Notes under the pieces: model-generated | Databases searched by the model: none | Seen by the model: only the letters and a program-made list of their open reading frames with translations | Told to the model about the DNA's origin: nothing | Position numbers and translations under genes: made by a program | In this document: piece by piece, positions 11,848-42,669 of the stretch | Position numbering within the stretch: position 1 is the first letter of the stretch | Layout of the letters: the number at the start of each line of letters is the position of its first letter | NCBI GenBank assembly: GCA_030150585.1 | Contig: JASLFM010000190.1 | Coordinates: 1-47,263 of the forward strand | Direction: 5' to 3' | Source: Acidovorax sp. | GTDB taxonomy: Bacteria; Pseudomonadota; Gammaproteobacteria; Burkholderiales; Burkholderiaceae_C | Length of the DNA: 47,263 nt

Positions 11848-11861
11848 TTGCGCTGTATCAA
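11848..11861. promoter_or_regulatory. Candidate FNR/CRP-family box TTGCG-CTGT-ATCAA
   Basis: It sits in the 173-bp divergent spacer, with its centre 82.5 nt from the phaB ATG and 91.5 nt from the groEL ATG. Confidence 0.45.
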
Positions 11862-11945
11862 TCAGTGGTTTTGATCCGTGCGCGAGAGTGATTGGCATGC
11901 GAGCCTGGCGTAAGGGCTTGGGGCGTGGACAGGAGGTCATCAGCT

Positions 11946-13571
11946 ATGTCTGCAAAGAAGCTGCTGTTTCGTGATGAGGCTCGCGACAAGATTCGCCGTG
12001 GCGTTGATACCCTGGCTGAGGCTGTCAGGGTGACGCTGGGTCCGCGCGGGCGTACTGTGGTGCTTGATCGTGAATTCGGTGCACCACAGATTGTCAATTC
12101 CGGCGTGGTTGTCGCAAAAGCGATCGAGTTGGAGGACCGGTTCGAGAACATGGGAGCGCAGTTGATGCGCGAAGTCGCTGCACGCACGAGCGAATTGGCG
12201 GGTGACGGCACCACCACGGCGATTGTGCTCGCGCACGGCTTGGTGCAAGAAGGCTTGAAGTATCTTGCCGCGGGAATGAATCCGATGGGGCTCAAGCGCG
12301 GCATCGAGCAGGCGATCGATGTTGTCGTGGCCGATCTGAAGCAGTTGGCCCAGCCCTGCGCCTCGTCGCAGGAAATTGCCCATGTCGCCGCGATCTCCGC
12401 CAACAACGACCGTTCGATTGGCGATCTCGTCGCGCAGGCGATGGACAGGGTAGGGCGCGATGGTGCGGTCTCGATCGAGGATGGATCGGGCATCGCGAGC
12501 CAGTTAGAGACCGTGGAAGGGCTGCAGTTCGACCGAGGCTATCTCTCTGCTTACTTCGTGAACAACCCCGAACGTCAGACCTGCGTGTTGGAGGATGTCG
12601 CGGTGCTGCTCTATGACCAGAAGCTCTCTGGCCTGCAGGAACTGGTGCCACTGCTCGAGGCTGCGGCAAAGGCGGGAATGCCCCTGCTGGTTGTCGCCGA
12701 GGATGTCGATGCGGAGGCGCTGGCAACCCTGGTCGTGAACAGCATCCGTGGGGTGATCAAGACCTGCGCCGTCAAGGCGCCGGGTTTTGGTGATCGCCGC
12801 AAGGCGATGCTGCAGGATCTCGCGCTCGTCACGGGCGGTGAGGTGATCTCCGCCGAACTGGGGTTGACCCTGGAGAAAGCCACGCTCGAACACCTCGGTC
12901 GCGCACGCCGTGTGGTAGTGGACAAGGAGTACACCACCATCGTCGGCGGCGCTGGCGACCCGTCCATGATTCGCGACCGCATTGCGACGCTGAAGAAAAA
13001 GCGTGAGAAGCCCACGAGCGACTACGACCGCGAAAAGCTGGACGAGCGCATCGCCAAGCTCTCGGGCGGCGTCGCGGTGATCAAGGTCGGTGCGGCTACG
13101 GAAACCGAACTCAAAGAGCGCAAGCTGCGTGTCGAAGATGCCTTGCACGCCACGCGTGCAGCCATTGAGGAAGGCATTGTTCCCGGCGGCGGGGTTGCCT
13201 TGCTGCGCGCGCGCAAGGCGTTGCAGGGGATCATCCTCCCGACGCTCGACGAAGATTCGGGCCTGAAGATTGTGGTGCGCGCGCTGGAGGAGCCAATGCG
13301 CCGCATTGTGCTCAACGCTGCGCAGGAACCATCCATCGTGCTGGATCGAGTCGATTCCGCAACGCAGGCGAGCTTCGGCTACAACGCGGCCAGCCACGAG
13401 TACGGCGATATGCTCGCGATGGGAGTGATTGACCCGGCGAAGGTGACGCGGTTGGCGCTCCAGAACGCCGGTTCCATTGCAAGCTTGATTCTCACGATCG
13501 ACTGTATGGTGGCCGATGCGCCCAAGAAGGAGTCGCCTTCACCGGCGATGCCAGCGGCCGAGATTTTTTGA
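11946..13571 (+). CDS. groEL: Chaperonin GroEL paralog (Cpn60) with no adjacent GroES
   Basis: ATG 11946 follows the RBS CAGGAGG. The sequence [40 protein letters not shown]...AGDGTTTA...IVPGGGVAL is present. The C-terminus ends ...[15 protein letters not shown] and lacks a GGM repeat tail. Confidence 0.9.
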
Positions 13572-13611
13572 GCGCAGGATCGTGCCAATGCGCGGACAAG
13601 GCACGGGAGGC

Positions 13612-13625
13612 TTGCGCTGGCGCAA
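13612..13625. promoter_or_regulatory. Perfect palindromic box TTGCG-CTGG-CGCAA, identical 14-mer to the one at 20999-21012
   Basis: Read directly. It lies in the convergent groEL/lon spacer, so no obvious promoter is served. Confidence 0.3.
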
Positions 13626-13777
13626 GGCATCGGGCATGGCGTCTGCCACGCAGCATCGGCGATGCCGGAGGCCTGCTTCATGAGCTTCAACGGTAATCAC
13701 CGGTGATCAAGTAATCTCTACACCCCGAGATAGGTCGCTTCGGCGCCAAGCCGTCTCTGGAGAGCGTGTGCACCGCA

Positions 13778-16123: not shown

Positions 16124-16153
16124 GGTTCACTCCATGCCGATGAGCCTCAGGTC

Positions 16154-16882: not shown

Positions 16883-16945
16883 GGCCAGTGCCCTTCAAAG
16901 CAGTGAATTGATCAGCCCATGTTAGGAGGCGGAGTCGCGATGGGA

Positions 16946-16959
16946 CTGATACGCGTCAA
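16946..16959. promoter_or_regulatory. Candidate FNR-family box (gene-sense TTGAC-GCGT-ATCAG)
   Basis: Its centre is 70.5 nt upstream of the DUF883 ATG (16882), the first gene of the DUF883-host attachment-lon run. Confidence 0.5.
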
Positions 16960-17243
16960 GTATTCGCTCGCAGTTCTTTGCCGGTCGTATCGCCGAGGCA
17001 TGCGGAAGCGGAGGTCGACCTGGCTCTGGCCATGGAACGGCAAACTGTCTCGGCATGCCGCGCGAAAGTTCAGCCAGACAACGCCTTTGAGTTGTGCCTG
17101 CAGCCGCGATAAATGCCTGCCCTAGGGCAGGGGGGTGTGCGCGGATTCGATTCGACGAGTGCGGTGGTTCTGGTGGTCCCGTATTTGGCGAACTCAATGT
17201 GATCCGGCCCGACCTGTCCAGCACGAGGTAGGTCGGTGTTCCT

Positions 17244-17528
17244 GAGAAAGTCCAGCGCGACGCTGAGCAGCACTGGCGCGATGATGATGAAGAAGTTAGC
17301 TGCATCGCCGGCCGAGGCCGATATGGCGCTGGCGGCCAGCAGCGCCAACACGAGCGGGTTGCGAAAGCGCGCGGGGAATTGCAGCGCGAGATGTCGCTGG
17401 CTGCCTGCCTCCAGCATGTTAGGACCGTGCTGTGCCGGCCATTCCTTCGCCTGGGCTTGCGACAGCCCTTACGTCGCTGCTGCTGCGGGATCGAGCCACC
17501 ACGTGGAAGCGGGGCGAGGAGGTTTCAC
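17244..17528 (-). pseudogene. Remnant of a P-type cation-transporting ATPase (N-terminal domain plus TM1-TM2 only)
   Basis: Hand translation from GTG 17528, which is 8 nt after the usp stop: VKPPRPASTWWLDPAAAAT*GLSQAQAKEWPAQHGPNMLEAGSQRHLALQFPARFRNPLVLALLAASAISASAGDAANFFIIIAPVLLSVALDFL. This matches the Cation_ATPase_N pattern (GLSxxEAxxRLxxxGPNxL...QFxNPLxxxLL) and the first TM hairpin. There is an in-frame TAA at 17469-17471. Similarity ends about 95 codons in, whereas an intact enzyme has about 900. Confidence 0.6.
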
Positions 17529-17535
17529 GTCGTGG

Positions 17536-17994: not shown

Positions 17995-18089
17995 GGTTGA
18001 AATCTCCTCGGCCGCAGCGATGGACGATCCACTCGCGACCGGCCGCTCTCGCGAGTGACAAATTCTTGGCACACGCGGCAGGTCAGCGC

Positions 18090-20781: not shown

Positions 20782-20998
20782 AGTCAACTCCAAATGCAGG
20801 CGCGCCTGTCGTCGCAATGGTCGGCATGTCTCCGGGGAGGGGGAGCCACGGGCTGCACCCCGGCGCTCAATGGCCTGGCTCAGGGCGACGGGCCTGCGCC
20901 TCTTCAACCATTGCCGGTCCAAGATGAGGTGGCAGCGTCGGCATGGGATCTCCTCATTGGCAGAGGACTGACGATGCCGCATCCGATTTGCAGTGCAC

Positions 20999-21029
20999 TT
21001 GCGCTGGCGCAATTGCGGATGCTGCGCAA
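20999..21029. promoter_or_regulatory. Tandem palindromes TTGCG-CTGG-CGCAA (20999-21012) and TTGCG-GATGCTG-CGCAA (21013-21029)
   Basis: Read directly in the 417-bp divergent pat/usp spacer. Confidence 0.35.
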
Positions 21030-21124
21030 GCCATTGGCGGCGGCTGCATTCTGGGGATCGCACCAGGCCCGTGAGTTTCCTGAGAATGGGCGAAAGGCAA
21101 AGTGGCACCTCAGTTCTAGAGCTC

Positions 21125-21138
21125 TTGACGGTGGTCAG
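21125..21138. promoter_or_regulatory. Candidate FNR-family box TTGAC-GGTG-GTCAG
   Basis: Its centre is 67.5 nt upstream of the tandem-usp ATG (21199). Confidence 0.5.
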
Positions 21139-21198
21139 AATATTGATGTGAACGGCGGCTACTTTCGGGGTATCTGGTCCCTTCGATTGGAGTTCGAA

Positions 21199-22526: not shown

Positions 22527-22624
22527 TTCAGCCTCCTCATGAAAAGATGATTGAAGCGGCGCAGGTAATGCAACACCGCAAGGCCCTGTTCACGTAGAAA
22601 GCGGGAGATGCGTTGTACCGCTGC

Positions 22625-22633
22625 GGGGGGGGG
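22625..22633. repeat. Homopolymeric G9 (C9 on the hsp20 strand) tract in the hsp20 upstream region
   Basis: Counted directly: ctgcGGGGGGGGGcacc, about 100 nt upstream of the hsp20 ATG. Confidence 0.9.
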
Positions 22634-22779
22634 CACCTGCTTCGTCGTGCGGCGTGGCAATGGCCCAAGCTATTGGCGCTCTGCGTGCCTTGCACTGCAT
22701 CCCAGCATTCGTCCTTCGCACTCCCGCTTTCCAGATGAACAAGCGCTGAATCACTATAGAAGGGCGGCTTCCTCGAGAA

Positions 22780-22793
22780 CTGACGCTTCTCAA
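22780..22793. promoter_or_regulatory. Candidate FNR-family box (hsp20-sense TTGAG-AAGC-GTCAG)
   Basis: It lies about 260 nt upstream of the hsp20 ATG, so it would imply a long leader. Confidence 0.3.
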
Positions 22794-22876
22794 CAATCGA
22801 ATGCTGGAGAGGATTGCAGAGGAGACATCTTCGGCGCCAATTCCTCGCGCGCACCAGGATCAGCGCGCTGGTTCGC

Positions 22877-22890
22877 TTGATCCTTATCAA
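22877..22890. promoter_or_regulatory. Consensus FNR/Anr box TTGAT-CCTT-ATCAA
   Basis: Perfect match to the classical TTGAT-N4-ATCAA consensus. Its centre is 70.5 nt upstream of GTG 22954, the proposed kinase start. It lies inside the longest possible ORF (from 22801), which argues for the downstream start. Confidence 0.6.
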
Positions 22891-22953
22891 GGCATATCCG
22901 GTGCGCTGGGGTGTACCTTTCGTACTCGAACATGCAGACAAGGCCCGTCTTCT

Positions 22954-25170
22954 GTGCCCGTACGTTCATACAAGCCGACTATTCGGCGGCTATTGATCCA
23001 GCTGGTGCTTGCTTGCCATCTGCTGGCATTGCTCGCGGGTGCAGGTGTCGTCTATCTGGGGTATCTGCATCAGCGTTCGGAGATGACGCAAGAGACCGTG
23101 GACAAGGCCGCGTGGCTTGCACGTACTCTGCGAGGCCGGATTGAGGATACACAGGCTGCTTTGAACCGGCTCGGAACCTTGGTGCCAGCCAGTGGCGACC
23201 TTGCTGACTTTCATCGCAGTGCCAGGACGCTCGCAGCGGAGCTTCAGGCAGATGCAATTGTGTTGATCCGCCCCTCCGGGAAACAGGTGGTCAATTCATT
23301 CTTCGAACTCCGGAACACCCCGGCCCGTGTGATGCCTTCTGATTTCACGGAAGTATTTCGCACGGGAAAGCCTGCGGTGGTGAACCTTCTCATGAGCCCT
23401 GTCAGCAATACGCAGGTCATCGCAATGGGTGTTCCCATCAACCGCGATGGGCGGCCAGCCTACGCCCTTTTTGCGATACTGGATGCTCACCGTCTACAAG
23501 CGCTTGTAGAACAGATTCCGGTCCCCGCCAGCTGGATTGTTGCCATTGTTGATGGAAATGGCCGCATTGCTGCCAGGAGTCCTCTGCGGAACCACCTCGT
23601 TGGACGCAAGCTCCCTGAGTCACTCCAGCAAAACCTAGAGGGACAAGCCTTCGGAACGTTCGAGGGCGTCACTCTGGATGGAACCCCGGCGGTAGCGGCT
23701 TACCACACGCTGCCCTCGATCGGATGGTCAGCGATTGTCAGCATCCCGCAGAGCGAGTTCTATGCCGCCGCTCAACGCGCAGCAGCAATGCTGGCCGCTT
23801 CACTTGCCCTCATGCTGGCAATCAGTTTGGCCGGAGCCTTGTGGCTGCAGCGCAAGCTGGTTCGCTCGATTTGGCAATTGCGCGATGCGGCGTCCACCCT
23901 GAGCACCCACGATTCCGAGATGGGAAGCCTTGCCTTTCGCGAGGCAGATGAGTTGGGCGAGGCCCTGAAAAAGACCGCCCATACCGTCGAGGCTTCCCGC
24001 TATGCCCTCTCTCGCAGCGAGCGTCAACTGGCTGGAATTCTCCACACAGCTAGGAGCGCCATCGTTGTTACCGATGCGCAGGGCCGCATACAGATGTTCA
24101 ACGCCGCAGCGGAGACCATTTTCGGCTACTCGCAACCCCGCGTGCTGGGGCGCCCGTTGCATGCGCTTTTTACCGAAGAGGGATGGGTGATATACAGCCG
24201 GGAAGCCGAGGCATCAACCGGTTGCGGCGATCTTGATGAAGTAAGGAGCACTACAGCACAGTGCATGCGCTTCGGACACATTCCATTTCCTGCAGAGTTC
24301 TCTGTCTCGGCGACTGAGGATGCGGACGGGCAGCGCATCTTCATAGTGCTTTTGCGCGATATCACTGCGCGTGTGCAGGCACAAGAGGCATTGCTGGCAG
24401 CCCATCGTGAACTGGATGAACTCAATCTCCGATTCGAGCGGATGCTCTTCAAGGAGTCGGACCTGTGGCATGCAGAAATCGCGAGGGAGCTGCACGATTC
24501 GGTGGGGTCGGCCTTGACGGGCATTGCGATGCTGCTCCAATCGGCACGCTGTCGCATGGAGTCACCACGTGCCGTGGAGACGCTGCTTGACAAGATGCAG
24601 GAGCAGTTGAAGCTCGCTTCAGAGCGGGTGCGACAACTTGCGCGGGGCATACTGCCTGCGGGAGAGGAAGCGGGTGCGCTGCGTCATGCGCTGGAGCAGT
24701 ATGCGAGCGATGTATCCGAAATGCGTGCTATCCATTGCGGCTTGCGAGCCCGTGGTGATTTTTCGGACATCCCTGCCAGTGCCGCTGGCCACGTCTTTCG
24801 CATTGTTCAGGAAGCTGTCACGAACGCGGTACGGCATGGAAGGGCAAGGTCGGTCCAGATTCGGCTTTTTCGCGCAGGTCACCAGTGCGGACTGACAGTG
24901 CGTGATGATGGCGATGGGTGCGACTTCTCCCTTCTGCCTCTTGAGCGGTTGGGGCTTGGCCTCAAGTCCATGCAAGCTCGGGCGAGGGCGCTGGATGGGA
25001 CGCTTGTCCTGCGTGGCCGCTGCGGCCACGGTTGTATAGTCCGACTGCGGTGGCCCGCCCAGCCAAGGAAAGCCCTTGTCTCCGATGATGCTCCGCCACG
25101 CGATGCGCGTTTGCCGGCATCAGGTGCATCGATTCATCCGTCCGTGAAAAGCGATCCACACCAGTCATGA
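22954..25170 (+). CDS. Sensor histidine kinase, NarX/DosS class (periplasmic Cache-like domain, HAMP, PAS, HisKA_3, HATPase)
   Basis: GTG 22954 gives a short basic N-terminus and then TM1 (LLIQLVLACHLLALLAGAGVV). A second TM (MLAASLALMLAISLAGALWL) is present, followed by PAS (ILHTARSAIVVTDAQGRIQMFNAAAETIFGY), an H-box (EIARELHDSVGSALTGI) and a G-box (GLGLKSM). The longest ORF starts at 22801, so the start is uncertain. Confidence 0.85.
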   Translation: MPVRSYKPTIRRLLIQLVLACHLLALLAGAGVVYLGYLHQRSEMTQETVDKAAWLARTLRGRIEDTQAALNRLGTLVPASGDLADFHRSARTLAAELQADAIVLIRPSGKQVVNSFFELRNTPARVMPSDFTEVFRTGKPAVVNLLMSPVSNTQVIAMGVPINRDGRPAYALFAILDAHRLQALVEQIPVPASWIVAIVDGNGRIAARSPLRNHLVGRKLPESLQQNLEGQAFGTFEGVTLDGTPAVAAYHTLPSIGWSAIVSIPQSEFYAAAQRAAAMLAASLALMLAISLAGALWLQRKLVRSIWQLRDAASTLSTHDSEMGSLAFREADELGEALKKTAHTVEASRYALSRSERQLAGILHTARSAIVVTDAQGRIQMFNAAAETIFGYSQPRVLGRPLHALFTEEGWVIYSREAEASTGCGDLDEVRSTTAQCMRFGHIPFPAEFSVSATEDADGQRIFIVLLRDITARVQAQEALLAAHRELDELNLRFERMLFKESDLWHAEIARELHDSVGSALTGIAMLLQSARCRMESPRAVETLLDKMQEQLKLASERVRQLARGILPAGEEAGALRHALEQYASDVSEMRAIHCGLRARGDFSDIPASAAGHVFRIVQEAVTNAVRHGRARSVQIRLFRAGHQCGLTVRDDGDGCDFSLLPLERLGLGLKSMQARARALDGTLVLRGRCGHGCIVRLRWPAQPRKALVSDDAPPRDARLPASGASIHPSVKSDPHQS

Positions 25171-25808
25171 GCAAGACGGTTGTTGTTATTGATGACCACG
25201 ACATCATTCGCTTCGGCTTGGAGGCGTTGCTTTCTGTTCGACCGGACCTTTGTATCGTCGGAGCCGCCAGTTCCTTGAAGCGAGGGCTCTTGTTGATTGA
25301 GGAGAAAAAGCCCGATCTCGTTATCACTGATATGGGTACGGGTGATTCTGGCGGCCTCGACACAGTGCGCGCTGTGGTTGCAGCACAGGCCGATCGTGCG
25401 ACCCTTGTACTGAGCATGCAAGACGAGATGCTGTACGGTGAGCAGGTTCTTGCATTGGGTGCCCGTGGCTACGTCATGAAAGACAACGCGCACGCCGACA
25501 TCGTGCCGGCTGTACATGCGGTGCTTGACGGCGGGATCTGGATGAGTCCGCGCCTAGGGGCTCGTTTGCTCAATCGGAATCTGAAGCGCATGCGTGTGAG
25601 TCGTGACGAAGGCGGTGATACACCCGGCTTGAGCGTGCGTGAGACGGAGGTGCTGGAGTTGCTCAAGCTGGGAAAGTCCACAAAAGAAATCGCTACGGCG
25701 TTGAAGCTCAGCACACGCACCGTGGACGTCCATCGCGCGAACATCAAGCGCAAGTTGGGACTGCGCACGGGAGCGGAGCTTATCGCGTTCGCATCTCACC
25801 ACATTTAG
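25167..25808 (+). CDS. NarL/LuxR-family response regulator
   Basis: The start overlaps the kinase stop (ATGA). The REC domain has DDHD, the acceptor Asp in LVITDMG and Lys in YVMKD. The C-terminal LuxR HTH reads LSVRETEVLELLKLGKSTKEIATALKLSTRTVDVHRANIKRKLG. Confidence 0.92.
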   Translation: MSKTVVVIDDHDIIRFGLEALLSVRPDLCIVGAASSLKRGLLLIEEKKPDLVITDMGTGDSGGLDTVRAVVAAQADRATLVLSMQDEMLYGEQVLALGARGYVMKDNAHADIVPAVHAVLDGGIWMSPRLGARLLNRNLKRMRVSRDEGGDTPGLSVRETEVLELLKLGKSTKEIATALKLSTRTVDVHRANIKRKLGLRTGAELIAFASHHI

Positions 25809-25910: not shown

Positions 25911-26687
25911 TCATTCCAGATAGCCTTTCGCACTCAGCCCATAGTGGTTGCACAACCCCTCGGTGTCAAGAATCTCGATGTGGCGTCGATGCACATCGAT
26001 ATAGCCCTGCTTGGCGAAAGCGGTAAGGCTGCGACAGACAGTCTCCAGAGTCATGCCGAGGTAGCCGCCTATCTCCTCGCGGGTCATGCGCAGTTGGATT
26101 TCACGGGCAGAGTAGCCTCGCTCTTGCATGCGGCTGGCCAGGTTGAGAAGGAAGGCGGCGACGCGCTTCACGGAATGCGTCGTGGCGATCAGGGACATCA
26201 CACTGCGCTCGCGCACCAGCTCGGTGGTGATCAAGCTGTTGATATGGTTGCGCACCAGGCGGTATTTTTCCGCAGACTCGTTGAGTTCGAAAAATGGCAC
26301 GGCGCATACCTCGGAGTCCTCCATGGCTGCGGCGGTTGATGGATGATGACCATTGGCGAGTCCATCAAACCCTATGATTTCTCCGGGCAGATGGAAAGCA
26401 ATCACTTGGTCGCGGCCTTCCTTCAAGGTGACGGTCGACTTGAATGTCCCCGCCCGAACGGCATACATGAAGAAGAACGGGTCTCCTTCGCGGTAGATAG
26501 CTTGCCCCTTGCGTACTCGGCGCTGGCCGATCTGCAACCGCTCGAATTCGGTGCCACTATCCGACCATGAGGGCAGGCAATGGCTGCGCACTGGGCAAAG
26601 GGCACAACGTCCCGGCGCGTGGTTCGCAGACGGTACAAGGGGCAGCGCATGACTAGCGGCATGAGATGTCTGGACGTCCATGGGCAT
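25911..26687 (-). CDS. fnr: FNR/Anr-type oxygen-sensing CRP-family regulator with an Fe-S cysteine cluster
   Basis: 258 aa. The N-terminal C28-x2-C31-x5-C37 (RCALCPVRSHC) plus C128 in MEDSEVCAVPF matches the FNR [4Fe-4S] ligand pattern. It has a cNMP-like barrel, and the HTH recognition helix reads LETVCRS. Confidence 0.88.
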   Translation of the reverse strand: MPMDVQTSHAASHALPLVPSANHAPGRCALCPVRSHCLPSWSDSGTEFERLQIGQRRVRKGQAIYREGDPFFFMYAVRAGTFKSTVTLKEGRDQVIAFHLPGEIIGFDGLANGHHPSTAAAMEDSEVCAVPFFELNESAEKYRLVRNHINSLITTELVRERSVMSLIATTHSVKRVAAFLLNLASRMQERGYSAREIQLRMTREEIGGYLGMTLETVCRSLTAFAKQGYIDVHRRHIEILDTEGLCNHYGLSAKGYLE

Positions 26688-26953
26688 GGGCCTTCAACAA
26701 AGGCAACGAGCCTGGATGGCTCATCATTGAACGGATTTTTGATTGGGGCTAGCCGGCGCGACTAAGCATAACTACGTGGCGAATATCGGTACTTGGCAGT
26801 AGTGTGGGTAGCTACCAGATACCGGAGCTCTGCTCAGGCAGTTCACTTGGATTCGGCAGCCGCTTCTGCCTTCCTGGGGACTGGATGGATGCATGGAGCG
26901 CCCCAGAAGCGCTGAACCCCAATGAAGCTTGGCTCCACGGGGCCGTGCCCGAA

Positions 26954-26967
26954 TTGACGGGGCGCAG
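26954..26967. promoter_or_regulatory. Candidate FNR-family box TTGAC-GGGG-CGCAG
   Basis: It lies in the 467-bp divergent spacer between fnr (ATG 26687) and the OmpR-type regulator (GTG 27155). Confidence 0.35.
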
Positions 26968-27154: not shown

Positions 27155-27886
27155 GTGAGTTCGCCCATCCATCTCGCAGTCCTTGACGACGAGGAAGAAA
27201 TCACCTCGCTGCTTGCCGGCTATCTGTTGAGGCAAGGGTTTCGCGTTAGCCAGCTTCACACGGGTGCTTCCTTGATATCCCTGATGGACAGCGATGCCCC
27301 GGCGCTTGTGTTGCTCGACCTGGGTTTGCCTGGAGAAGATGGTTTCGCCATCGCGCGCCAGCTGCGCGAGCATTGGCGCTGTGGGCTGGTGATCATTACT
27401 GGCCGTGGTGACCCTGTCGACAAAGTGGTCGGCCTGGAGGTTGGTGCAGATGATTACGTGACCAAGCCGTTCGACCTTCGGGAACTATTGGCGCGCATCA
27501 AAGCGGTGTTGCGCCGTCTTGCCCCGAATGCCGAGCCTGCCATGGCGAGGATGCTCTTGGTCGGGCGAACCGCTCACCGCTTTCTTCAATGGGAACTGGA
27601 CACTGCTGCCCGCCGTTTGAGGGACCCCTCTGGGCTCGACGTTAATTTGACGACCGGTGAGTTCGATCTTCTCGCAGTTTTCATCGCGAACCCCGGACGG
27701 GTGCTATCGCGTGATTTCCTTCTGGAGTACACGCACCGGCGCGAGGCCAGCCCTTTCGATCGCACCATCGATGTGCAGGTTGGGCGACTGCGTCGCAAGA
27801 TGGAGGCAGATCCGCAGAATCCGCAGATCATCAAATCCGTGCGCGGCGCTGGCTACATCTTTATTCCCAAGGTTGACTCGTCGTGA
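27155..27886 (+). CDS. OmpR/PhoB-family response regulator
   Basis: GTG start. REC motifs: LAVLDDEEE, LVLLDLGLPGEDG and YVTKPF. The winged-helix output domain reads LTTGEFDLLAVFIANPGRVLSRDFLL...VQVGRLRRKME...IKSVRGAGYIF. Confidence 0.9.
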   Translation: MSSPIHLAVLDDEEEITSLLAGYLLRQGFRVSQLHTGASLISLMDSDAPALVLLDLGLPGEDGFAIARQLREHWRCGLVIITGRGDPVDKVVGLEVGADDYVTKPFDLRELLARIKAVLRRLAPNAEPAMARMLLVGRTAHRFLQWELDTAARRLRDPSGLDVNLTTGEFDLLAVFIANPGRVLSRDFLLEYTHRREASPFDRTIDVQVGRLRRKMEADPQNPQIIKSVRGAGYIFIPKVDSS

Positions 27887-29901
27887 GCGCCCACCCGGTG
27901 ATCCCCGGCTTCAGCGACTGCACGGTCTTCCGTGCGCTGTTCGCTGCTTACCCGGATGCCTTGCTGCTGGTCGATCTGCAAGGCCAGATTGTCCTGGCCA
28001 ATCCGGCAGCCATTGAGCTGCTGGGCTATTCTGCCGAGGCATTCTGCGGGTTGCCGGTGGATGAGTTGGTCCCCGATGGCATTCGGCCTCGCCATGCCGC
28101 TTACCGCGAAGCCTATGCGGCGCATCCACGCGCAAGGCCGATGGGAACGCACATGGAGCTGGTTGCCAAGCGGTGTGACGGCAGCGAGGTGATGGTGGAA
28201 ATAGCGCTGAGTCCACTTCAGGAGCGAGGCCTGCCATACATCGTGGCTGCGGTGCGCGGTGTGGGGGCCTATCCCCATGTCAAGCAAGCCTTTCAGCGTG
28301 CTCGCTATGCCGAGTGCCTGGCCCAGTTCGGCCGGAGCGCGGTCAATGCGCGCGAACCGCAGGCAGTGCTGAGGCAAGTGCCTGCAATGGCCGCTGAAGC
28401 ACTTGAAGTAGAGAGTGCGGCTGTTCTGATACTCGAGCCTGATGAACTCGATTTTCGCATTGCCGCAGGCATTGGCATGGCAGCGGGGGAGTATGTCGGT
28501 GGACTGCTTCCCAACCAACCAACCCTACCTGCAGGCCAAGTGGTTGCCACAGGGCAGGCTGTGATTGCGAGTGCGGGTAGCCGTGAGGGTGCGCACTGGC
28601 CCAGCGAACTGGCTGTGCCGCTGTCAGACTGCGGACGCACCATTGGCGTATTGAGCGCGCGTTCGCGCATTGCTGGGCGTTTCAGCGACCATGAAGGCCG
28701 TTTCCTGGGTTCTCTGTCGAATCTGCTCTCGACGGTGCTTCAGCGTGCGAAAAGTGAGGAGGCCCTGAGCCATGCACAGCGGCTGGAGAGCATCGGCCAG
28801 CTCACAGGGGGCATAGCCCATGACTTCAACAACCTTCTGACCGTGATTTCGGGCAACCTTCAAATGCTCGAAGGTATGCCTGTTTGCGCGACCGATGGTC
28901 ACATCCGGCAGCTCGTGGATGCCGCGAGCCGCGCGACCCGACGTGGCTCCGAGCTCACCGAAAAGCTGCTCGCCTTTTCGAGACGGCAAGTACTTCAGGC
29001 CAGTGTGCTGGACATATCCGAGCTGCTTTCCTCATTGACAGATATGCTTCGTCGAACGCTCGACCAGCGCATCATCATCACCCTTGAAGCTGAAGCGCTG
29101 CTGTGCTTGGCGGATCCGATACAACTTGAGTCTGCGTTGCTGAACATTGCCATCAATGCACGTGACGCCATGCCCGGCGGTGGTGTCTTGGCCTTCGTAT
29201 GCAGAGCACAGGCCACACTGCCTGACGAACTCATGGATCCTGGGGTGGAGCCGAACGAAGCCGGCTATGTGAGGATCGCCGTTACGGATACGGGCGCTGG
29301 TATGACCAAGGCTGTCAAGGCGCATGCCTTCGAGCCCTTTTTCACCACCAAGGAAAGTGGTCGTGGCACTGGCTTGGGGTTGTCTACTGTTTATGGATTT
29401 GCCAGGCAATCGCACGGAGCGGTCGCCCTGCAAAGCGAGCCAGGGAAGGGGACTACCGTGACGCTCTACCTGCCGCAAGTTCGCGCGGAAGGGGGCAGGG
29501 AGCCTCGGCAGCCGAGCGAGCCAGACCATGAATTTCCCACTGGGCTGAGGATACTGCTGGTCGAGGACGATTGCGAGCTTCGGTATGTGATTGAGAGGTT
29601 TCTTGCGTCAATGCAGTGCAAGGTGGAGTTCCGTGCGACTGCGGAGGAGGCTCTGAGGCTGCTGGAGTCCGATATCGCGTTCGACTTGCTCCTCTCCGAC
29701 ATCGCCCTGGGGGCCGGGATGCGCGGCATTGAGCTGGCCGAACTCGTGCGGGAGAGGTCGCCTGCGCTTCCCATATTGCTGATGTCTGGATTCTCTGGCG
29801 AGCTCATAGGGTCGCTGCGAGGATGGAGCTTTTTGCGTAAGCCCTGCACTTGCATGGAATTGAGGTATGCAATAGCAACGGCACTGCGTCCGCCGTGTTA
29901 G
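27883..29901 (+). CDS. Hybrid sensor histidine kinase (PAS, GAF, HisKA, HATPase, C-terminal REC)
   Basis: The GTG start overlaps the regulator stop (GTGA). Domains: PAS (FAAYPDALLLVDLQGQIVLANPAAIELLGY), a GAF-like segment, H-box (GGIAHDFNNLLTVI), N/G boxes (LNIAINARDAM, DTGAGM, GTGLGLS) and REC (ILLVEDD...LLLSDIAL). Confidence 0.9.
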   Translation: MSAHPVIPGFSDCTVFRALFAAYPDALLLVDLQGQIVLANPAAIELLGYSAEAFCGLPVDELVPDGIRPRHAAYREAYAAHPRARPMGTHMELVAKRCDGSEVMVEIALSPLQERGLPYIVAAVRGVGAYPHVKQAFQRARYAECLAQFGRSAVNAREPQAVLRQVPAMAAEALEVESAAVLILEPDELDFRIAAGIGMAAGEYVGGLLPNQPTLPAGQVVATGQAVIASAGSREGAHWPSELAVPLSDCGRTIGVLSARSRIAGRFSDHEGRFLGSLSNLLSTVLQRAKSEEALSHAQRLESIGQLTGGIAHDFNNLLTVISGNLQMLEGMPVCATDGHIRQLVDAASRATRRGSELTEKLLAFSRRQVLQASVLDISELLSSLTDMLRRTLDQRIIITLEAEALLCLADPIQLESALLNIAINARDAMPGGGVLAFVCRAQATLPDELMDPGVEPNEAGYVRIAVTDTGAGMTKAVKAHAFEPFFTTKESGRGTGLGLSTVYGFARQSHGAVALQSEPGKGTTVTLYLPQVRAEGGREPRQPSEPDHEFPTGLRILLVEDDCELRYVIERFLASMQCKVEFRATAEEALRLLESDIAFDLLLSDIALGAGMRGIELAELVRERSPALPILLMSGFSGELIGSLRGWSFLRKPCTCMELRYAIATALRPPC

Positions 29902-30611
29902 GCATTGGCGGTTCTTTGAATAAAGCCGCTGAGCGCCTCCATCCGTGGAATCTCGATGTCGCGCCGCCCCTTCTCCAGAAAGCGAATCAAATCGACGCGG
30001 GCCAAGTGCGACAAAGCCCTGCTCACAGACTCCAGCGTCATACCCAGGTAGTTACCTATCTCCGAGCGTGAAAGGTACAGCGTGATTCGGTCGGTGCGCT
30101 GGCCGCGCTGCGCCAAAGCATCAGACCAGTAGCGCAGGAACTCTGCCACCCGGGCTTCCGCTGGCAGCGAAAGACGGGACTGCAGTGATTCATGGTTCAA
30201 GGCGAGCGCGCGGCTCATGGCTTCGTGCAAGGCCATTAGCAGTGCGGGAGTGCGCGCGGAGGCTTGTAGTAGTGCTTCGTATCGGACTGACCAGACCTCT
30301 CCGGTGTCGAGTGCGATCGCATCGCAGGCGTATTGCCCGGTTGCGAGGCCATCCACCCCGAGCCAGTCCCCTCTGAAGTGGAGCGAGACCAGCTGCTCAC
30401 GACCTTCCGCGGACAGACTCACGAGTTTGACCAGTCCGCAGTTGAGCATATGGAGACAGCCAAACTCCTGTCCAACCCGGTAGATGGCATCACCCGCATG
30501 CACCATGCGCCGTTGAATGGAGACCGATTCCTGCAACAGCTGCAACATGGCGCCGATACGTGCTACCAAGTTGCGTGTCAGTTGGGCATCGCGTTGAGTT
30601 GCTTCATTCAT
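29898..30611 (-). CDS. CRP/FNR-family regulator without a cysteine cluster (Dnr/NnrR-like class)
   Basis: 237 aa with an effector barrel and the HTH SRSEIGNYLGMTLESVSRALSHL (E-x-x-S-R recognition residues). It has no N-terminal Cys motif. Its TAA overlaps the TAG of the convergent kinase (TTAG at 29898-29901). Confidence 0.85.
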   Translation of the reverse strand: MNEATQRDAQLTRNLVARIGAMLQLLQESVSIQRRMVHAGDAIYRVGQEFGCLHMLNCGLVKLVSLSAEGREQLVSLHFRGDWLGVDGLATGQYACDAIALDTGEVWSVRYEALLQASARTPALLMALHEAMSRALALNHESLQSRLSLPAEARVAEFLRYWSDALAQRGQRTDRITLYLSRSEIGNYLGMTLESVSRALSHLARVDLIRFLEKGRRDIEIPRMEALSGFIQRTANA

Positions 30612-35553: not shown

Positions 35554-35613
35554 GCGGTTCTCCTTTGCGAGCAATCGGATTGTCAAAGTCTAGAAAGCGC
35601 AACGCAAAGATCC

Positions 35614-35735: not shown

Positions 35736-35769
35736 CAGCAGGTGATCATTGATTCGGGATAGTGGACGC

Positions 35770-36597: not shown

Positions 36598-36611
36598 CTG
36601 ACAACCGTCAG
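36598..36611. promoter_or_regulatory. Candidate FNR-family palindrome CTGAC-AACC-GTCAG
   Basis: Its centre is 70.5 nt upstream of the nitroreductase ATG (36675). Confidence 0.5.
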
Positions 36612-36674: not shown

Positions 36675-37313
36675 ATGGAGGTTTCTTTGAGCACCATTCC
36701 TCTCGACCTTGTTCGGGACATCATCCCGCTTCCTCCGATTGACGCAGATGGAAAGCCGCCTTTGCAACAGCTGCTGCGCGCCCGGCGCAGCACACGCGAA
36801 TTTCTCAGCGAACCACTCACGCTGCAGCAACTGGCTGAGCTCCTCTGGTCAGCGTGTGGAGTGAGCAGTGGCGAAACGCAGCGCCGGACGGCGCCTTCGG
36901 CGCATGGCTGGCAAGAGATATCGGTCTATGCACTGTTGCCTGAAGCGGCCTATCGCTACGATGCCATACATCACAGATTGATTCTCGTGAGGGCTGAGGA
37001 TCTCCGCGCGGCCTCTGGGCTGCAGGAGTTTGCAGCTACCGCTCCGCTCAACCTGGTGTATGTGGTTGATTTTGAATTGATGCACGAAGCACCGCCGGAG
37101 GAGCGCCGCTTTCTCTCGGCAATCGATACGGGGTGCATCGCACAGAACGTGTACCTGTACTGCACCGAGGAGGGCCTTGGAACGGTGGTGCGTGCCCTCA
37201 TCGATCGACGCGAACTCGCCGGGGCGCTTGGCCTCAGCTCCACTGAGCGTGTTGTGCTCGCGCAGTCCGTCGGCCACCCGAGATTACCTCTAACCCTCCT
37301 CAGGAGCATGTGA
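36675..37313 (+). CDS. Nitroreductase-family protein (SagB-type dehydrogenase-like)
   Basis: LLRARRSTREFLSEPLTLQQLAELLWSACGV...RTAPSAHGWQEISVYAL is the pattern typical of this family. Confidence 0.85.
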   Translation: MEVSLSTIPLDLVRDIIPLPPIDADGKPPLQQLLRARRSTREFLSEPLTLQQLAELLWSACGVSSGETQRRTAPSAHGWQEISVYALLPEAAYRYDAIHHRLILVRAEDLRAASGLQEFAATAPLNLVYVVDFELMHEAPPEERRFLSAIDTGCIAQNVYLYCTEEGLGTVVRALIDRRELAGALGLSSTERVVLAQSVGHPRLPLTLLRSM

Positions 37314-39603: not shown

Positions 39604-40434
39604 ATGTATTTCCAAATGCATGGCACGTGGCTCCACCGTTCGATTGCTTGGGTGTTTGTGTTCTGCTCCTTTGCGAGGGCCGCTAATTTGGCTAGCGACT
39701 CCCCTGCGAGTCCTGAGGAGTTGGCGCAGGTATATCGCACCCAGGTGGATCGCCAGCTGGCTGTTCCCGTCTCGGCGCTTCCTCGTTATGCGGAACTAAC
39801 GGAGGAGGCTTTTGCGCAGGCTGCAATCACCCCTGGCCATTCACAATATGTAGTTGTGATAGACCGCAGCCCCGTTGTTCAGGCCCTGTTGCTGCTGTGG
39901 CGCAAGGCCCGAGGTGAGTACGTATTCGTAGGCGCATCGCCCGTGTCTACCGGGCGACCAGGCGGCTTTGATCACTTCATGACTCCCTTGGGGGTCTTCG
40001 ACCATACGCCGGCCAATCCCGATTTTAGAGCGGAAGGAACGTTCAACAGAAACGGTGTTCGCGGATATGGCATCAAGGGGATGCGTGTCTTTGACCTGGG
40101 TTGGCAGCCCGCATCAAAGGGTTGGGGAGATGGTGCCCTCTTGAAGATCCGCTTGCAAATGCATGCCACAGATCCGGATTTTCTGGAGTGGCGTCTCGGC
40201 TCAGCGCAGTCCAAGGGATGCATTCGCATTCCATCCACGCTGAATCAACTGTTCGATCAATATGGCGTAATCGACGCGGCATACGATGAAGCTGAACTTG
40301 CTGGTGCCGCGCTCTGGGTGCTGAGAGCAGATCGGAGGCCTGTGGCTGGCGCCGGTCGGTACATCGTCATCGTTGACAGCGCTGGTGTGGAACGTCCAGA
40401 TTGGAGTCCTGTGCCGAGATCTCCGGGGCGGTGA
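39604..40434 (+). CDS. L,D-transpeptidase (YkuD) family protein
   Basis: Signal peptide (WLHRSIAWVFVFCSFARA) and the catalytic motif HATDPDFLEWRLGSAQSKGCIRIP (His...Ser-x-Gly-Cys-Ile-Arg). The start could be at 39604 or 39616. Confidence 0.72.
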   Translation: MYFQMHGTWLHRSIAWVFVFCSFARAANLASDSPASPEELAQVYRTQVDRQLAVPVSALPRYAELTEEAFAQAAITPGHSQYVVVIDRSPVVQALLLLWRKARGEYVFVGASPVSTGRPGGFDHFMTPLGVFDHTPANPDFRAEGTFNRNGVRGYGIKGMRVFDLGWQPASKGWGDGALLKIRLQMHATDPDFLEWRLGSAQSKGCIRIPSTLNQLFDQYGVIDAAYDEAELAGAALWVLRADRRPVAGAGRYIVIVDSAGVERPDWSPVPRSPGR

Positions 40435-40468
40435 TCGGCAGCATACCCTTCAAGAGAAAAGGTATGGC

Positions 40469-41119
40469 ATGAGCAATTTTCTGTTTTCTGACAGGGTGCA
40501 GGCCGCTGAGAAGCTCACGCAGAAACTCCGGAGCTACATCGACCAGCATGTATTGATCCTGGCAATCCCCCGAGGTGGAGTTCCCATTGGAGCCGTACTG
40601 GCAAGTCAGTTGCGGGGCGAACTCGACGTCGCCATGGTGCACAAGTTGGGGGCGCCAAGCAGCCCGGAACTGGCTATCGGCGCGATCGACGAGGCGGGGC
40701 GCGTTTGGCTGGAGCCGTATGCGCACATGACAGACAAAAGCTATATCGATGCAGAGGCGGGAAGGCAGTTGATGGAGATTCGCCGCCGGCGCGCCCTGTA
40801 TGCGTCTGGACGTGCACCCACTGCTGTAGCGGGGCGTGTGGTTATCGTTGTGGACGACGGGCTAGCAACGGGGGCCACGATGACCGCTGCATTGAGGGCT
40901 GTGCGGGAGCTTCGGCCTCTGAGGCTGGTCTGTGCCGTGCCTGTGGCTTCTGTGGAAGGTATCGAACGGGTGAGGCACTTGGCAGATGAAGTGGTGTGCG
41001 TGGACTACCCCGCTGAGTTTGTTGGGGTCGGTCAGTTCTATGGCTCGTTCCCACAAGTGAGCGATAGTGAGGTAATCGCCCTGCTAAACGGTGGTGCAAC
41101 TAACGGCCCTGGCCAGTGA
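40469..41119 (+). CDS. Phosphoribosyltransferase-domain protein
   Basis: ATG 40469. It has FSDRVQAAEKL...LILAIPRGGVPIG and the PRPP-binding loop VVIVVDDGLATGATM. Confidence 0.85.
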   Translation: MSNFLFSDRVQAAEKLTQKLRSYIDQHVLILAIPRGGVPIGAVLASQLRGELDVAMVHKLGAPSSPELAIGAIDEAGRVWLEPYAHMTDKSYIDAEAGRQLMEIRRRRALYASGRAPTAVAGRVVIVVDDGLATGATMTAALRAVRELRPLRLVCAVPVASVEGIERVRHLADEVVCVDYPAEFVGVGQFYGSFPQVSDSEVIALLNGGATNGPGQ

Positions 41120-41314
41120 CAGCACGCGTTGATGCTGCTCTTTGGGCGCTCCAAGGGCTGCCCCATCAGCTCATGCGGACATCGCAGTTCTCGCTGGGCA
41201 TGGGCCATCTTGATGTCTGCCAATAGCTACGTACTGCAGGTGTGAATTCTGCTTCTTCCTCGCCATTGCGATACCAGGTCGCAGAGCGGTGTCCCGGTGG
41301 TCCATGCACAGATC

Positions 41315-41328
41315 ATGACAGCTGTCAG
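41315..41328. promoter_or_regulatory. FNR-family-like palindrome ATGAC-AGCT-GTCAG (core TGACAGCTGTCA is a perfect 12-bp palindrome)
   Basis: Read directly in the 437-bp gene-free gap. Its half-sites are the same as the boxes at 36598 and 42656. Confidence 0.35.
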
Positions 41329-41410
41329 ATTCTGCTGCGGCACATGTATTAGATTCTTCATGTCATCGTTCACCGGATGGTGCTGCCGACTGCGAAAGCG
41401 TGGCGGAACT

Positions 41411-41436
41411 GGGCCGCACAACCAGCGGCCTTTTTT
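41411..41436 (+). terminator. Intrinsic-terminator-like hairpin: GGCCGC acaacca GCGGCC followed by TTTTTT
   Basis: Read directly. It has a 6-bp all-GC stem, a 7-nt loop and a T6 run. It lies 290 nt downstream of the PRT stop with no convincing ORF in between. Confidence 0.5.
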
Positions 41437-41556
41437 GCCGAGGCATGATGCGCCGCGGCCGTCACCCGACATGCAGGCAGATCCCGCCTTCAGTGGCAAT
41501 CCGGTGGACGATGACTTTTTTTGCGGTAGGCGGGAAAGCTGCCGCAATGCTGTTCG

Positions 41557-42561
41557 CTAGGGTATGAGAACCGCGGCACCTTCCAGAGTGCCATTCCGGA
41601 CAGCCTGTACAGCCGTATTGGCCTCTATCAAAGAATATGTCTGTACATGGGTCGTGACGTGGATGGAATTGAGCAAGGTGAAGAATGCTTGCGCATCGTT
41701 GCGCGTCAAGTTTGCTACCGACCTCAGCTCTCGCTCTCCCCAGAGCAGGGAGTAGGGAAGCGCCGGTATGGCGCTCATGTGAATCCCGCCGCACACCACT
41801 ATTCCGCCTTTGCGTACGCGCGCCAGAGCAAGCGGAACCAGCTGACCACTCGGTGCGAAGATCAATTGGGCGTCGAGTGCAATCGGCGGTGGCATATCGC
41901 TATCGCCTGCCCATATGGCGCCCAGATTCTTTGCAAAGGCCTGTCCCCTTGTGTCGCCGGGCCGGGTGAATGCGAATACTTCCTGGCCGTGGGCAACGGC
42001 CAGTTGACACACGATGTGCGCCGCGGCCCCGAACCCCCAAATGCCGATGCGCCTGGGCTCCATTCCGCCAGCAAGCCGCCAAGTCCGGTATCCAATGAGT
42101 CCCGCGCATAGCAGAGGAGCCACATGGGCGTCGTCGTAGCTATCTGGCAAGGGAATGCAGAAGCGCTCGTCGGCGGCCGCATACTCTGCGTACCCGCCAT
42201 CGCGGTCGTAGCCCGTGAATACAGGCTCGTCGCAGAGGTTCTCCCGTCCCATGTGGCAGAACGCGCATTGGCCGCATGTGCCGCCAAGCCATGGAATGCC
42301 GACACGTTGGCCCACCTCAAAGCGCACAGCCCCCAATCCACGGGCGACGACCTCGCCCACGATCTCATGCCCAGGAACGACACCAGCACGGTGCGGTTGC
42401 AACTCGGCGTCGATAACGTGTAGATCGGTGCGGCACACGCCGCAAGCGCGGACGCGAACCAAGACGTCCTGAGCCTCAAGTTGAGGCAACGGCTTTCGTA
42501 CCAAGAGGAGTTGGTGCGAGGCGGTGTCGGCCTGCATCGCACGCATTGTTGCGGGCAGCAT
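41557..42561 (-). CDS. Zinc-dependent alcohol dehydrogenase (AdhP-like MDR)
   Basis: VRVRACGVCRTDLHVIDAEL...GHEIVGEVV (catalytic Zn), CGQCAFCHMGRENLC (structural Zn) and IWGFGAAAH (Rossmann). The start may be ATG 42546 (MRAMQ...) rather than 42561. Confidence 0.9.
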   Translation of the reverse strand: MLPATMRAMQADTASHQLLLVRKPLPQLEAQDVLVRVRACGVCRTDLHVIDAELQPHRAGVVPGHEIVGEVVARGLGAVRFEVGQRVGIPWLGGTCGQCAFCHMGRENLCDEPVFTGYDRDGGYAEYAAADERFCIPLPDSYDDAHVAPLLCAGLIGYRTWRLAGGMEPRRIGIWGFGAAAHIVCQLAVAHGQEVFAFTRPGDTRGQAFAKNLGAIWAGDSDMPPPIALDAQLIFAPSGQLVPLALARVRKGGIVVCGGIHMSAIPALPYSLLWGERELRSVANLTRNDAQAFFTLLNSIHVTTHVQTYSLIEANTAVQAVRNGTLEGAAVLIP

Positions 42562-42594
42562 GGCTGCATACTAGTCTTGGCGTGCATGACGTGA

Positions 42595-42608
42595 TTGAGA
42601 TCGCGCAA
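42595..42608. promoter_or_regulatory. Candidate FNR-family box TTGAG-ATCG-CGCAA
   Basis: Its centre is 40-64 nt upstream of the possible ADH start codons (42561, 42546, 42537). Confidence 0.4.
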
Positions 42609-42655
42609 TAGCCATTGGGGTGGTGCATGCATCTTCCCTTCAACCGTCACAGAAC

Positions 42656-42669
42656 ATGACGGTTGTCAG
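42656..42669. promoter_or_regulatory. Candidate FNR-family box ATGAC-GGTT-GTCAG, overlapping an 8-bp inverted repeat AACCGTCA-N7-TGACGGTT (42642-42664)
   Basis: Read directly in the 285-bp divergent ADH/GGDEF spacer. Confidence 0.4.

Follow-up and report, generated by a model that had tools for sequence, protein, structure and literature searches.

The contig JASLFM010000190.1 of an Acidovorax sp. (assembly GCA_030150585.1), complete at 47,263 nucleotides and called the window below, carries a gene island whose intergenic spacers repeatedly contain 14-bp inverted repeats of the FNR type. This raises the question of whether these boxes are operators of a common promoter architecture, and which of the FNR-family proteins encoded on the island would read them. 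In the class II promoters of FNR in E. coli and of Anr in Pseudomonas, a TTGAT-N4-ATCAA-like site near –41.5 replaces the –35 element. The boxes of the island are enriched in spacers, stand in a fixed register to a –10 hexamer and, across nine diverged loci, are retained upstream of homologous genes; the island also encodes regulators of the FNR type. We conclude that the 14-mers are very probably class II operators for dimeric FNR/Anr-type activators, placed before most transcription units of the island.

The initial annotation had listed sixteen 14-mers, nine of the form TTG-N8-CAA and seven relaxed or weaker, and all sixteen were verified in sequence and position (Table 1). Across the window the TTG-N8-CAA pattern has 17 matches, with 10 in island spacers (5.29 kb), 6 in island coding sequence (28.2 kb) and 1 in the flanks (13.8 kb). 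Nine matches lie wholly within spacers; after dinucleotide shuffling these spacers hold 1.62 ± 1.27 (maximum 7; none of 2000 shuffles reaches 9). De novo motif discovery by expectation maximization on the 22 island spacers ranked nTTGCGCtGgnTCAAt first, whether or not a palindrome was imposed; the model allowed zero or one site per sequence, an unrestricted number of sites having converged on a degenerate 200-site motif. A position weight matrix (PWM) trained on sites of related loci only, with the window excluded, has TTG and CAA as its invariant positions and yields 10 window matches at ≥12 bits, 9 of them in spacers; in the comparison with shuffles the spacer count is 8 against 0.33 ± 0.58. 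The concentration in spacers that had been reported by eye is thus upheld by shuffles, by the de novo motif and by a matrix built from relatives. Every divergent spacer (7/7) has at least one box, and among the 14 promoter-bearing spacers 8 carry a strong and 3 a weak box, in agreement with the claim that most of them are occupied.

To place the boxes relative to promoters we used a register test that is free of start-codon choice, scanning both orientations for TAnnnT after the end of the box. The boxes came from the window and six related loci, which were reached via protein homologues of the island FNR (51–62% identity) and then their encoding contigs. Among the 38 strict spacer boxes, TAnnnT is found at offset 22 in 12 cases and at offset 23 in 4; elsewhere in the range 1–64 no offset has more than one case. 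Boxes that deviate at one of the outer TTG/CAA positions peak likewise (12 at offset 22, 3 at offset 23), and their mismatch lies mostly in the promoter-proximal half. The composite pattern TTG-N8-CAN-N21/22-TAnnnT occurs six times in the window, always in island spacers, compared with 0.64 ± 0.77 in block shuffles; these six matches are the promoters of SDR, DUF883, tandem Usp, HSP20, ADH1 and ADH2. The same register validates the relaxed boxes at 16946, 21125, 22780 and 41315. With the –10 hexamer at –12 to –7 (the start being assumed 7 nt after the hexamer), the box centre falls at –40.5 or –41.5, so that the class II position proposed earlier for these sites is backed by the TAnnnT register, at a predicted centre of about –40.5/–41.5. 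The fixed element is therefore the distance from box to –10, not the distance from box to start codon.

The boxes are also kept where gene order is not. In the six related loci a triad of sensor kinase, LuxR-type response regulator and FNR genes is retained, accompanied by a shuffled set of accessory genes (HSP20, USPs, AAA_33, PhaC, BON, phasin, ADH, phosphoribosyltransferase, ACS-GNAT, CBS, Host_attach, DUF883, FtsH and a cation ATPase). Their TTG-N8-CAA matches divide between spacers (1–2 kb) and coding sequence as 9:2, 7:2, 6:0, 2:1, 2:1 and 1:2, and in one locus (L088) both coding matches lie inside a small-heat-shock gene called at 276 aa. Despite the reordered genes, the relatives' boxes precede HSP20, Usp, sensor kinase, ADH, PhaC, BON, ACS-GNAT and DUF883 genes. 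Orthologues of the second CRP/FNR protein of the island, here FNR2, are numerous in Variovorax (62–69% identity), where a triad of OmpR-type response regulator, PAS-GAF hybrid kinase and FNR2 lies beside ccoNOQP-fnr-hemN and near Usp, DksA-like, ADH, SDR, BON, PhaC and ACS-GNAT genes. The same boxes in the same –10 register are found in these Variovorax loci and in an lxa-like cluster of B. pyrrocinia (L170). Since the two triads are separate elsewhere, one in uncultured Burkholderiales and the other in Variovorax chromosomes, the island can be described as a mosaic of two regulatory modules.

In the initial annotation the promoter geometry had been read from five box centres lying 67.5 or 70.5 nt upstream of a start codon. 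The arithmetic is correct (70.5, 67.5, 70.5, 67.5 and 70.5 nt), and the short leaders deduced for the five promoters agree with our predicted 27–30 nt, but the distance is not a fixed value. A functionally fixed spacing of 67.5/70.5 nt is ruled out by the predicted class II promoters of nine loci, in which the distance from box centre to start forms a continuum of ~54–110 nt plus a separate class at 40.5–44.5 nt. As for the five starts themselves, those of tandem Usp (21199), the sensor kinase (~22954) and ADH1 (35553) are backed by the N-termini of homologues, while the DUF883 start (16882) is the pick of the codon-usage model for an open reading frame (ORF) of <80 aa. For the nitroreductase operon the case is doubtful. 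Only 4 of the 6 outer positions agree in its box, CAATCT makes a weak –10, and translation may begin at 36675 or 36687, the TTG at 36687 having a GGAGG Shine-Dalgarno sequence and the ATG at 36675 none.

The class at 40.5–44.5 nt comprises 12–14 of the 56 predicted class II promoters in the nine loci; its leaders are predicted to measure –1 to +4 nt, and the gap between 44.5 and 54 nt is nearly empty, with one borderline case at 54.5 nt. Its members in relatives (L082:9629, L084:6964, L086:3643, L087:7017 and others) depend on automatic start calls. In the window the class contains ADH2 (ATG 42561) and a conserved hypothetical gene (ATG 35770), and both starts are supported by homologue N-termini: ATG 35770 corresponds to residue 1 of the homologue of the hypothetical gene, and the ADH2 start is shared with a 72%-identical ADH of L082, whose box centre is 41.5 nt from the start. 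To judge from these positions, the mRNAs of ADH2 and of the conserved hypothetical gene are probably leaderless. The broader proposal, that a defined subset of FNR-dependent promoters yields leaderless mRNAs, is tentative and on balance somewhat doubtful. If true, part of a beta-proteobacterial hypoxia/dormancy programme would be translated without a Shine-Dalgarno sequence, and low oxygen would be coupled to a distinct mode of translation. Leaderless translation is common in mycobacteria.

Two proteins of the FNR family are encoded on the island (Table 1). That one is an Fe-S FNR and the other a cluster-less CRP/FNR paralogue, as initially annotated, is confirmed by their cysteines and by the E--(S/C)R recognition helix, whose Glu and Arg are kept in both. 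The best solved match of the island FNR is Aliivibrio fischeri FNR. FNR2 also matches A. fischeri FNR best (9qly and related structures, E ~2e-26), with FixK2 (4i2o) at E = 5.5e-11 and no Dnr structure among the matches listed. The helix of the island FNR has a Cys in place of the DNA-contacting Ser that is kept in ≥90% of its 24 closest orthologues and in A. fischeri FNR (ETVSR/ETISR).

The mechanism that would fit these observations is as follows. On a drop in oxygen, the four-Cys FNR of the island would gain a [4Fe-4S] cluster and dimerize; a chromosomal FNR and FNR2 may also act. The dimer would bind TTG(A/C)(T/C/G)-N4-(A/G/C)(T/G)CAA and, presumably activating rather than repressing, recruit RNA polymerase to promoters that have a –10 and no –35 element. 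The genes switched on would be of a survival- or dormancy-like kind: those for USPs, HSP20, the Cpn60 paralogue, Lon, ACS-GNAT, PhaC and phasin, as well as for the two Zn-ADHs, nitroreductase, CBS, DksA-like, BON and phosphoribosyltransferase proteins and the regulators themselves.

Several observations weigh against such an account. The –10 criterion and the gene starts of relatives depend on automatic gene calls. The boxes at 26954, 36598 and 42656 are weak, each not separable from noise, and the strong boxes at 13612 (in a convergent spacer) and 20999 are without a correctly placed –10. The organism is represented by one contig and one near-identical Logan contig. Finally, there are at least two FNR-family proteins, and the sequence by itself does not tell which one binds.

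It is conceivable in principle that the boxes are an artefact of chance or composition, the spacers being AT-richer than coding sequence, or that they are terminator- or REP-like palindromes. The relaxed class is indeed loose: the spacers of seven loci contain 66 boxes with one mismatch, and most of these have no –10. Such an origin is nevertheless hardly credible in view of shuffled spacers that never reach the observed count, the fixed –10 register and the retention of sites upstream of homologous genes in reordered loci; moreover, the central 4 nt are not conserved and would therefore form no stable hairpin. For the strict boxes, shuffles, register and PWM rule it out. Very improbable, too, is the reading that the island's NarL/LuxR-type (DosR-like) response regulator, and not an FNR protein, binds the dyads. 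We counted in its favour a GAC-N4-GTC core, which we take to be common to the DosR consensus and the relaxed boxes. The gene set also resembles the mycobacterial DosR regulon (PMC12071387). However, the DosR box GGGAC-N4-GTCCC with at most one mismatch is not enriched (2 window matches, both in coding sequence, versus 1.9 expected), TTG and CAA are invariant as in FNR, and a palindrome upstream of the relatives' fnr, CTAGGTACAGGTACCTAT, is a better candidate for the site of such a regulator. A reading that we consider rather unlikely, although less so, is that the boxes are read mainly by a housekeeping FNR from another part of the genome, the island having joined an existing regulon that its own FNR-family genes only modulate. 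FNR boxes are generic across Burkholderiales, and the Variovorax homologues beside ccoNOQP-fnr-hemN carry the same ones. Among 5.8 billion proteins none exceeds 62% identity to the island FNR, and the best match in a scan of 185,579 species genomes is 44% (housekeeping FNRs, 35–44%), which would fit a recent or rare addition; a scan of metagenome contigs with the FNR alignment returned mainly generic FNRs at 40–49% identity. On the other hand, the triad of kinase, LuxR-type response regulator and FNR travels with the targets in six independent loci, which points to the local FNR as the cognate one.

A division of labour between the two island regulators has to be considered as well. The initial annotation had suggested that TTGAT-like and TTGCG-like half-sites partition between them, and in its full form this reading posits two regulons, with the Fe-S FNR on TTGAT/TTGAC halves and FNR2 on TTGCG/CGCAA, or FNR–FNR2 heterodimers on hybrid sites. 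It can point to the two encoded paralogues, to a share of TTGCG halves that is highest in the window, to the altered helix residue of the island FNR and to the fact that the only homotypic TTGCGC-N2-GCGCAA sites (13612 and 20999) lack a good class II –10. There is also a precedent in the half-sites of Herbaspirillum Fnr1 and Fnr3 (PMC5934665). In the 52 sites that we compared (all strict boxes plus the relaxed boxes validated by a –10), TTGCG pairs with TTGAT at 10 sites, with TTGAC at 6 and with itself at 2, both in the window. This gives 16 hybrid versus 2 homotypic sites, close to independent assortment, under which ~2.8 homotypic sites would be expected. Furthermore, the class II register is common to hybrid and homotypic TTGAC sites, TTGCG halves occur in every related locus, including the six relatives with one FNR gene visible in the 12–21 kb examined, and also upstream of BON in Variovorax, and the Glu and Arg of the FNR helix are present in both proteins. 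A clean partition between two homodimeric regulators is thus not supported, and we regard the two-regulon reading as a whole as improbable. That TTGCG halves are targets of FNR/FNR2 heterodimers has no positive support here and is less likely than the leaderless reading. The interpretation that we prefer remains that of class II operators for FNR/Anr-type dimers.

Box by box, Table 1 amounts to a near-complete promoter map of a ~33-kb low-oxygen island, giving box, –10, predicted transcription start site (TSS) and leader for about a dozen transcription units.

Table 1. FNR-type boxes, regulatory genes and a small RNA candidate in the window. Bits are PWM scores; TSSs and leaders are predictions.
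Feature	Position	Strand	Context and promoter elements
FNR box TTGCGCTGTATCAA	11848..11861		Divergent SDR/Cpn60 spacer; 12.5 bits; promoter faces SDR, –10 TACAGT 11821-11826 (–), TSS ~11814; weaker –10 GAGAGT towards Cpn60
Box TTGCGCTGGCGCAA	13612..13625		Convergent Cpn60/Lon spacer; 13.8 bits; no –10 at class II offset
Box TTGACGCGTATCAG	16946..16959	–	DUF883-Host_attach-Lon operon; –10 TAACAT 16919-16924; TSS ~16912; leader 30 nt
Box TTGATCGGGCGCAA	18090..18103	–	Upstream of Usp1; 16.8 bits; –10 AAGAAT 18062-18067; leader ~61 nt
Box TTGCGCTGGCGCAA	20999..21012		Divergent ACS-GNAT/tandem-Usp spacer; weak –10 CATCGT towards ACS only
Box TTGACGGTGGTCAG	21125..21138	+	Tandem Usp; –10 TACTTT 21160-21165; TSS ~21172; leader 27 nt to ATG 21199
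Box TTGAGAAGCGTCAG	22780..22793	–	HSP20; –10 TATAGT 22753-22758; TSS ~22746; leader ~220 nt
Perfect-consensus box TTGATCCTTATCAA	22877..22890	+	Operon of sensor kinase and LuxR-type response regulator; 18.1 bits; –10 TACCTT 22914-22919 at offset 24; TSS ~22926; leader ~28 nt to GTG 22954
Sensor kinase (dCache-PAS-HisKA_3) and NarL/LuxR-type response regulator	22954..25808	+	Adjoin the Fe-S FNR gene in six related loci
Four-Cys FNR	25911..26687	–	C28, C31, C37 and C128 fall on the A. fischeri FNR cluster cysteines in an alignment; helix ETVCR
Weak box TTGACGGGGCGCAG	26954..26967		Divergent spacer of fnr and OmpR-type response regulator; not individually significant
OmpR-type response regulator and PAS-GAF hybrid kinase	27155..29901	+	Adjoin the fnr2 gene in Variovorax
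FNR2, cluster-less CRP/FNR paralogue	29898..30611	–	Without N-terminal cysteines and fourth Cys; helix ESVSR
Box TTGCGCTGCGTCAA	30759..30772		Divergent fnr2/PhaC spacer; 13.4 bits; 154.5 nt to fnr2 start, 211.5 nt to PhaC start
Box TTGACAACGCGCAA	35614..35627	–	ADH1; –10 TAGACT 35587-35592; TSS ~35580; leader 27 nt
Box TTGATGCCGGTCAA	35722..35735	+	Conserved hypothetical gene; 17.1 bits; –10 GATAGT 35758-35763; predicted TSS 35770 = ATG
Relaxed box CTGACAACCGTCAG	36598..36611	+	Upstream of nitroreductase-CBS-DksA-BON operon; weak –10 CAATCT
Relaxed box ATGACAGCTGTCAG	41315..41328	+	Convergent spacer; –10 TAGATT 41350-41355 at class II offset
Candidate FNR-dependent small RNA, ~75 nt	41362..41437	+	Predicted TSS ~41362 to terminator-like hairpin
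Box TTGCGCGATCTCAA	42595..42608	–	ADH2; –10 TAGTAT 42568-42573; predicted TSS 42561 = A of start codon
Relaxed box ATGACGGTTGTCAG	42656..42669		Sole –10 candidate weak

Some entries of the table call for comment. The weak box at 26954 could serve autoregulation of fnr through a –10 CAAGCT. Of the identical homotypic boxes at 13612 and 20999, the first stands in a convergent spacer, where a promoter is not needed. The reverse complement of box 42656, CTGACAACCGTCAT, matches box 36598 (CTGACAACCGTCAG) at 13 of 14 positions, and box 21125 on the other strand (CTGACCACCGTCAA) and a box of a related locus (L084:5432, TTGACCACCGTCAT) are similar to both; boxes like CTGACAACCGTCAG and CTGACAACCGTCAT may, from this likeness, form a sub-flavour of the motif. 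In the predicted HSP20 leader (22527–22746), the ~220 nt with a C9 run compare with 46–51 nt in relatives, and no ROSE-type RNA family was found in it at Rfam gathering thresholds. The box at 41315 would drive the small RNA candidate, whose predicted transcript ends at an intrinsic-terminator-like hairpin (41411–41431) followed by TTTTTT. This candidate has no Rfam family and no homologue in the fetched loci, and its fold z-score of –1.2 is unremarkable.

The closest known parallel is the low-oxygen-activated (lxa) locus in B. cenocepacia J2315, a cluster of 50 genes with an induction of 2- to 240-fold when oxygen is low (Sass et al. 2013, PMC3721108). Among its products are six USPs, an alpha-crystallin-related protein, functions in alcohol turnover and storage polymers, the Anr-related regulator BCAM0287 and two two-component systems. 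A MEME-derived 'lxa motif', a 4-bp inverted repeat with a 6-bp gap, was found at 17 intergenic points, and its authors compared the core TGA-N6-TCA, common to Anr/Fnr sites, with those sites (PMC3721108). The island shares with lxa the character of a low-GC, apparently inserted cluster with USPs, HSP20/alpha-crystallin, alcohol and polymer genes, a CRP/FNR regulator and two two-component systems, and it shares the dyad with a TGA-N6-TCA core at most intergenic points. It differs in gene order and part of the content, in a TTGCG share of roughly one quarter to one third among its half-sites, in having its nearest relatives in Comamonadaceae (Variovorax-like) and uncultured Burkholderiales, and in the class II register, leaderless subclass and cluster-less regulator module that are described here for the island and not in PMC3721108. 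The island FNR is 41–44% identical to Burkholderia FNRs. The chromosome-2 region around the best FNR match in B. multivorans was considered as a counterpart and rejected, as it is not lxa-like and has few genes in common with the island. Given this FNR identity, the few genes shared with B. multivorans and DNA similarity of at most ~72%, the island appears not to be orthologous to lxa (BCAM0275a–BCAM0323). What it represents is an lxa-like module, a system of one kind with lxa but from another lineage, and it reveals no new mechanism. The regulon logic of lxa, a class II FNR/Anr box before USP, HSP20, ADH and polyhydroxyalkanoate genes, extends well beyond Burkholderia, as Variovorax chromosomes and uncultured Burkholderiales also have these modules and boxes; B. 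cenocepacia, the host of lxa, is a cystic-fibrosis pathogen. Reviews still call the lxa regulator predicted and note that the Lxa, Anr and DosR gene sets overlap (PMC12071387), and Anr paralogues are needed for anoxic survival of B. cenocepacia H111 (PMC9104464).

With the class II promoters of FNR and Anr, the island shares the type and position of the dyad, a regulator with an N-terminal Cys cluster and a fourth Cys, and a helix of the E--SR type. Its –10 elements are GC-adapted (TAGATT, TACAGT, TAGACT), however, TTGCG and TTGAC halves are common, the FNR helix has Cys for Ser, and the targets are of a stress/dormancy type and not those of anaerobic respiration. USP genes are given as Anr targets in PMC3721108, which cites Trunk et al. 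2010 for this. In Herbaspirillum seropedicae, the fnr1 promoter is class II with an Fnr site centred at –42, the half-sites of Fnr1 and Fnr3 can be told apart, heterodimers being proposed to bind hybrid sites, and an intact [4Fe-4S] cluster is required for Fnr homodimers (PMC5934665). This system of Fnr1, Fnr2 and Fnr3 likewise belongs to Burkholderiales and has several FNR paralogues, closely related dyads and hybrid half-site sites; unlike it, the island has in FNR2 a protein without the Cys cluster. The arrangement around FNR2 also recalls the cascades from Anr to Dnr and from FixLJ to FixK, in that a cluster-less paralogue gene lies beside genes for a PAS-domain kinase and a response regulator, with an FNR-type box upstream (30759) and an FNR-like dyad that FNR2 is predicted to recognize. 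FixJ is a LuxR-type response regulator, whereas the one adjoining FNR2 is of the OmpR type, and in contrast to Anr–Dnr systems the window has no denitrification genes. The likeness to the DosR regulon is one of gene functions (HSP20, single and tandem USPs, nitroreductase, CBS, AAA_33/APH, phosphoribosyltransferase, HisKA_3 kinase and LuxR-type response regulator) and not of membership, the operator of the island being an FNR dyad.

The palindrome mentioned above, CTAGGTACAGGTACCTAT (TAGGTAC-AG-GTACCTA), is a conserved 18-bp near-palindrome between the gene of the LuxR-type response regulator and fnr in relatives (L084:9915, L085:9871, L086:9870, L088:9870 and L087:9922; weaker at L082:4294). 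It contains the NarL-heptamer-like TACCTAT and, to go by this resemblance, may be a response regulator site, implying a cascade from the two-component system to fnr. In the window it is absent at ≤3 mismatches, 26762–26779 being a degenerate match only, and fnr is inverted relative to the loci that carry it.

The island, of ~33 kb and extending up to ~44.2 kb (10738–44211), begins immediately after a tRNA-Lys(UUU) gene (10662–10737). Its genes have a GC content of 53–64%, compared with 64–72% for flanking genes, so that the island lies 5–15% below its flanks, where housekeeping genes such as tmk are found (65–72% GC). A search for an att-like direct repeat turned up no second copy of ≥11 nt from the tRNA region in the window, and a Pfam scan of 29 island genes revealed no integrase. 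Genes were called with a self-trained codon model and Pfam; GC3-based calling was dropped, being too noisy in the lower-GC island. The Pfam assignments comprise SDR, a Cpn60 paralogue, Lon, Host_attach/baeRF, DUF883, a single and a tandem USP, an ADP-forming acetyl-CoA synthetase fused to GNAT (ACS-GNAT), HSP20, the dCache-PAS-HisKA_3 kinase with its LuxR-type response regulator and FNR, the OmpR-type response regulator, PAS-GAF hybrid kinase and second CRP/FNR protein, PhaC, an AAA_33 kinase-like protein (AAA_33/APH), two Zn-ADHs, the nitroreductase-CBS-DksA-like-BON operon, phasin, YkuD, a phosphoribosyltransferase and a GGDEF protein. The ACS-GNAT protein shares 73.5% identity with its counterpart in Variovorax sp. 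CF079, and tmk DNA is 79% identical to Variovorax; the host is probably a Variovorax-like member of the Comamonadaceae. DNA searches with the island gave no similarity above ~72%. The sole other copy on record is a 6.7-kb Logan contig (L081) with 1 single-nucleotide polymorphism in 1.1 kb, which is so nearly identical to the window that it carries no footprinting information.

The practical value of the boxes lies in annotation, as several automatic gene calls are over-extended across them. In the Logan copy these are the tandem Usp called at 353 aa (20974–21198 region) and the kinase called at 789 aa (22801–22953), for both of which homologue N-termini favour the shorter gene. In relatives, an HSP20 call of 276 aa (L088:1556-2386) and a 148-aa ORF (L171:14422-14868) cross boxes as well. 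Upstream of DUF883, the 653 bp at 16883–17535 are without a recognizable gene, and the 127-aa ORF that they contain has no Pfam match.

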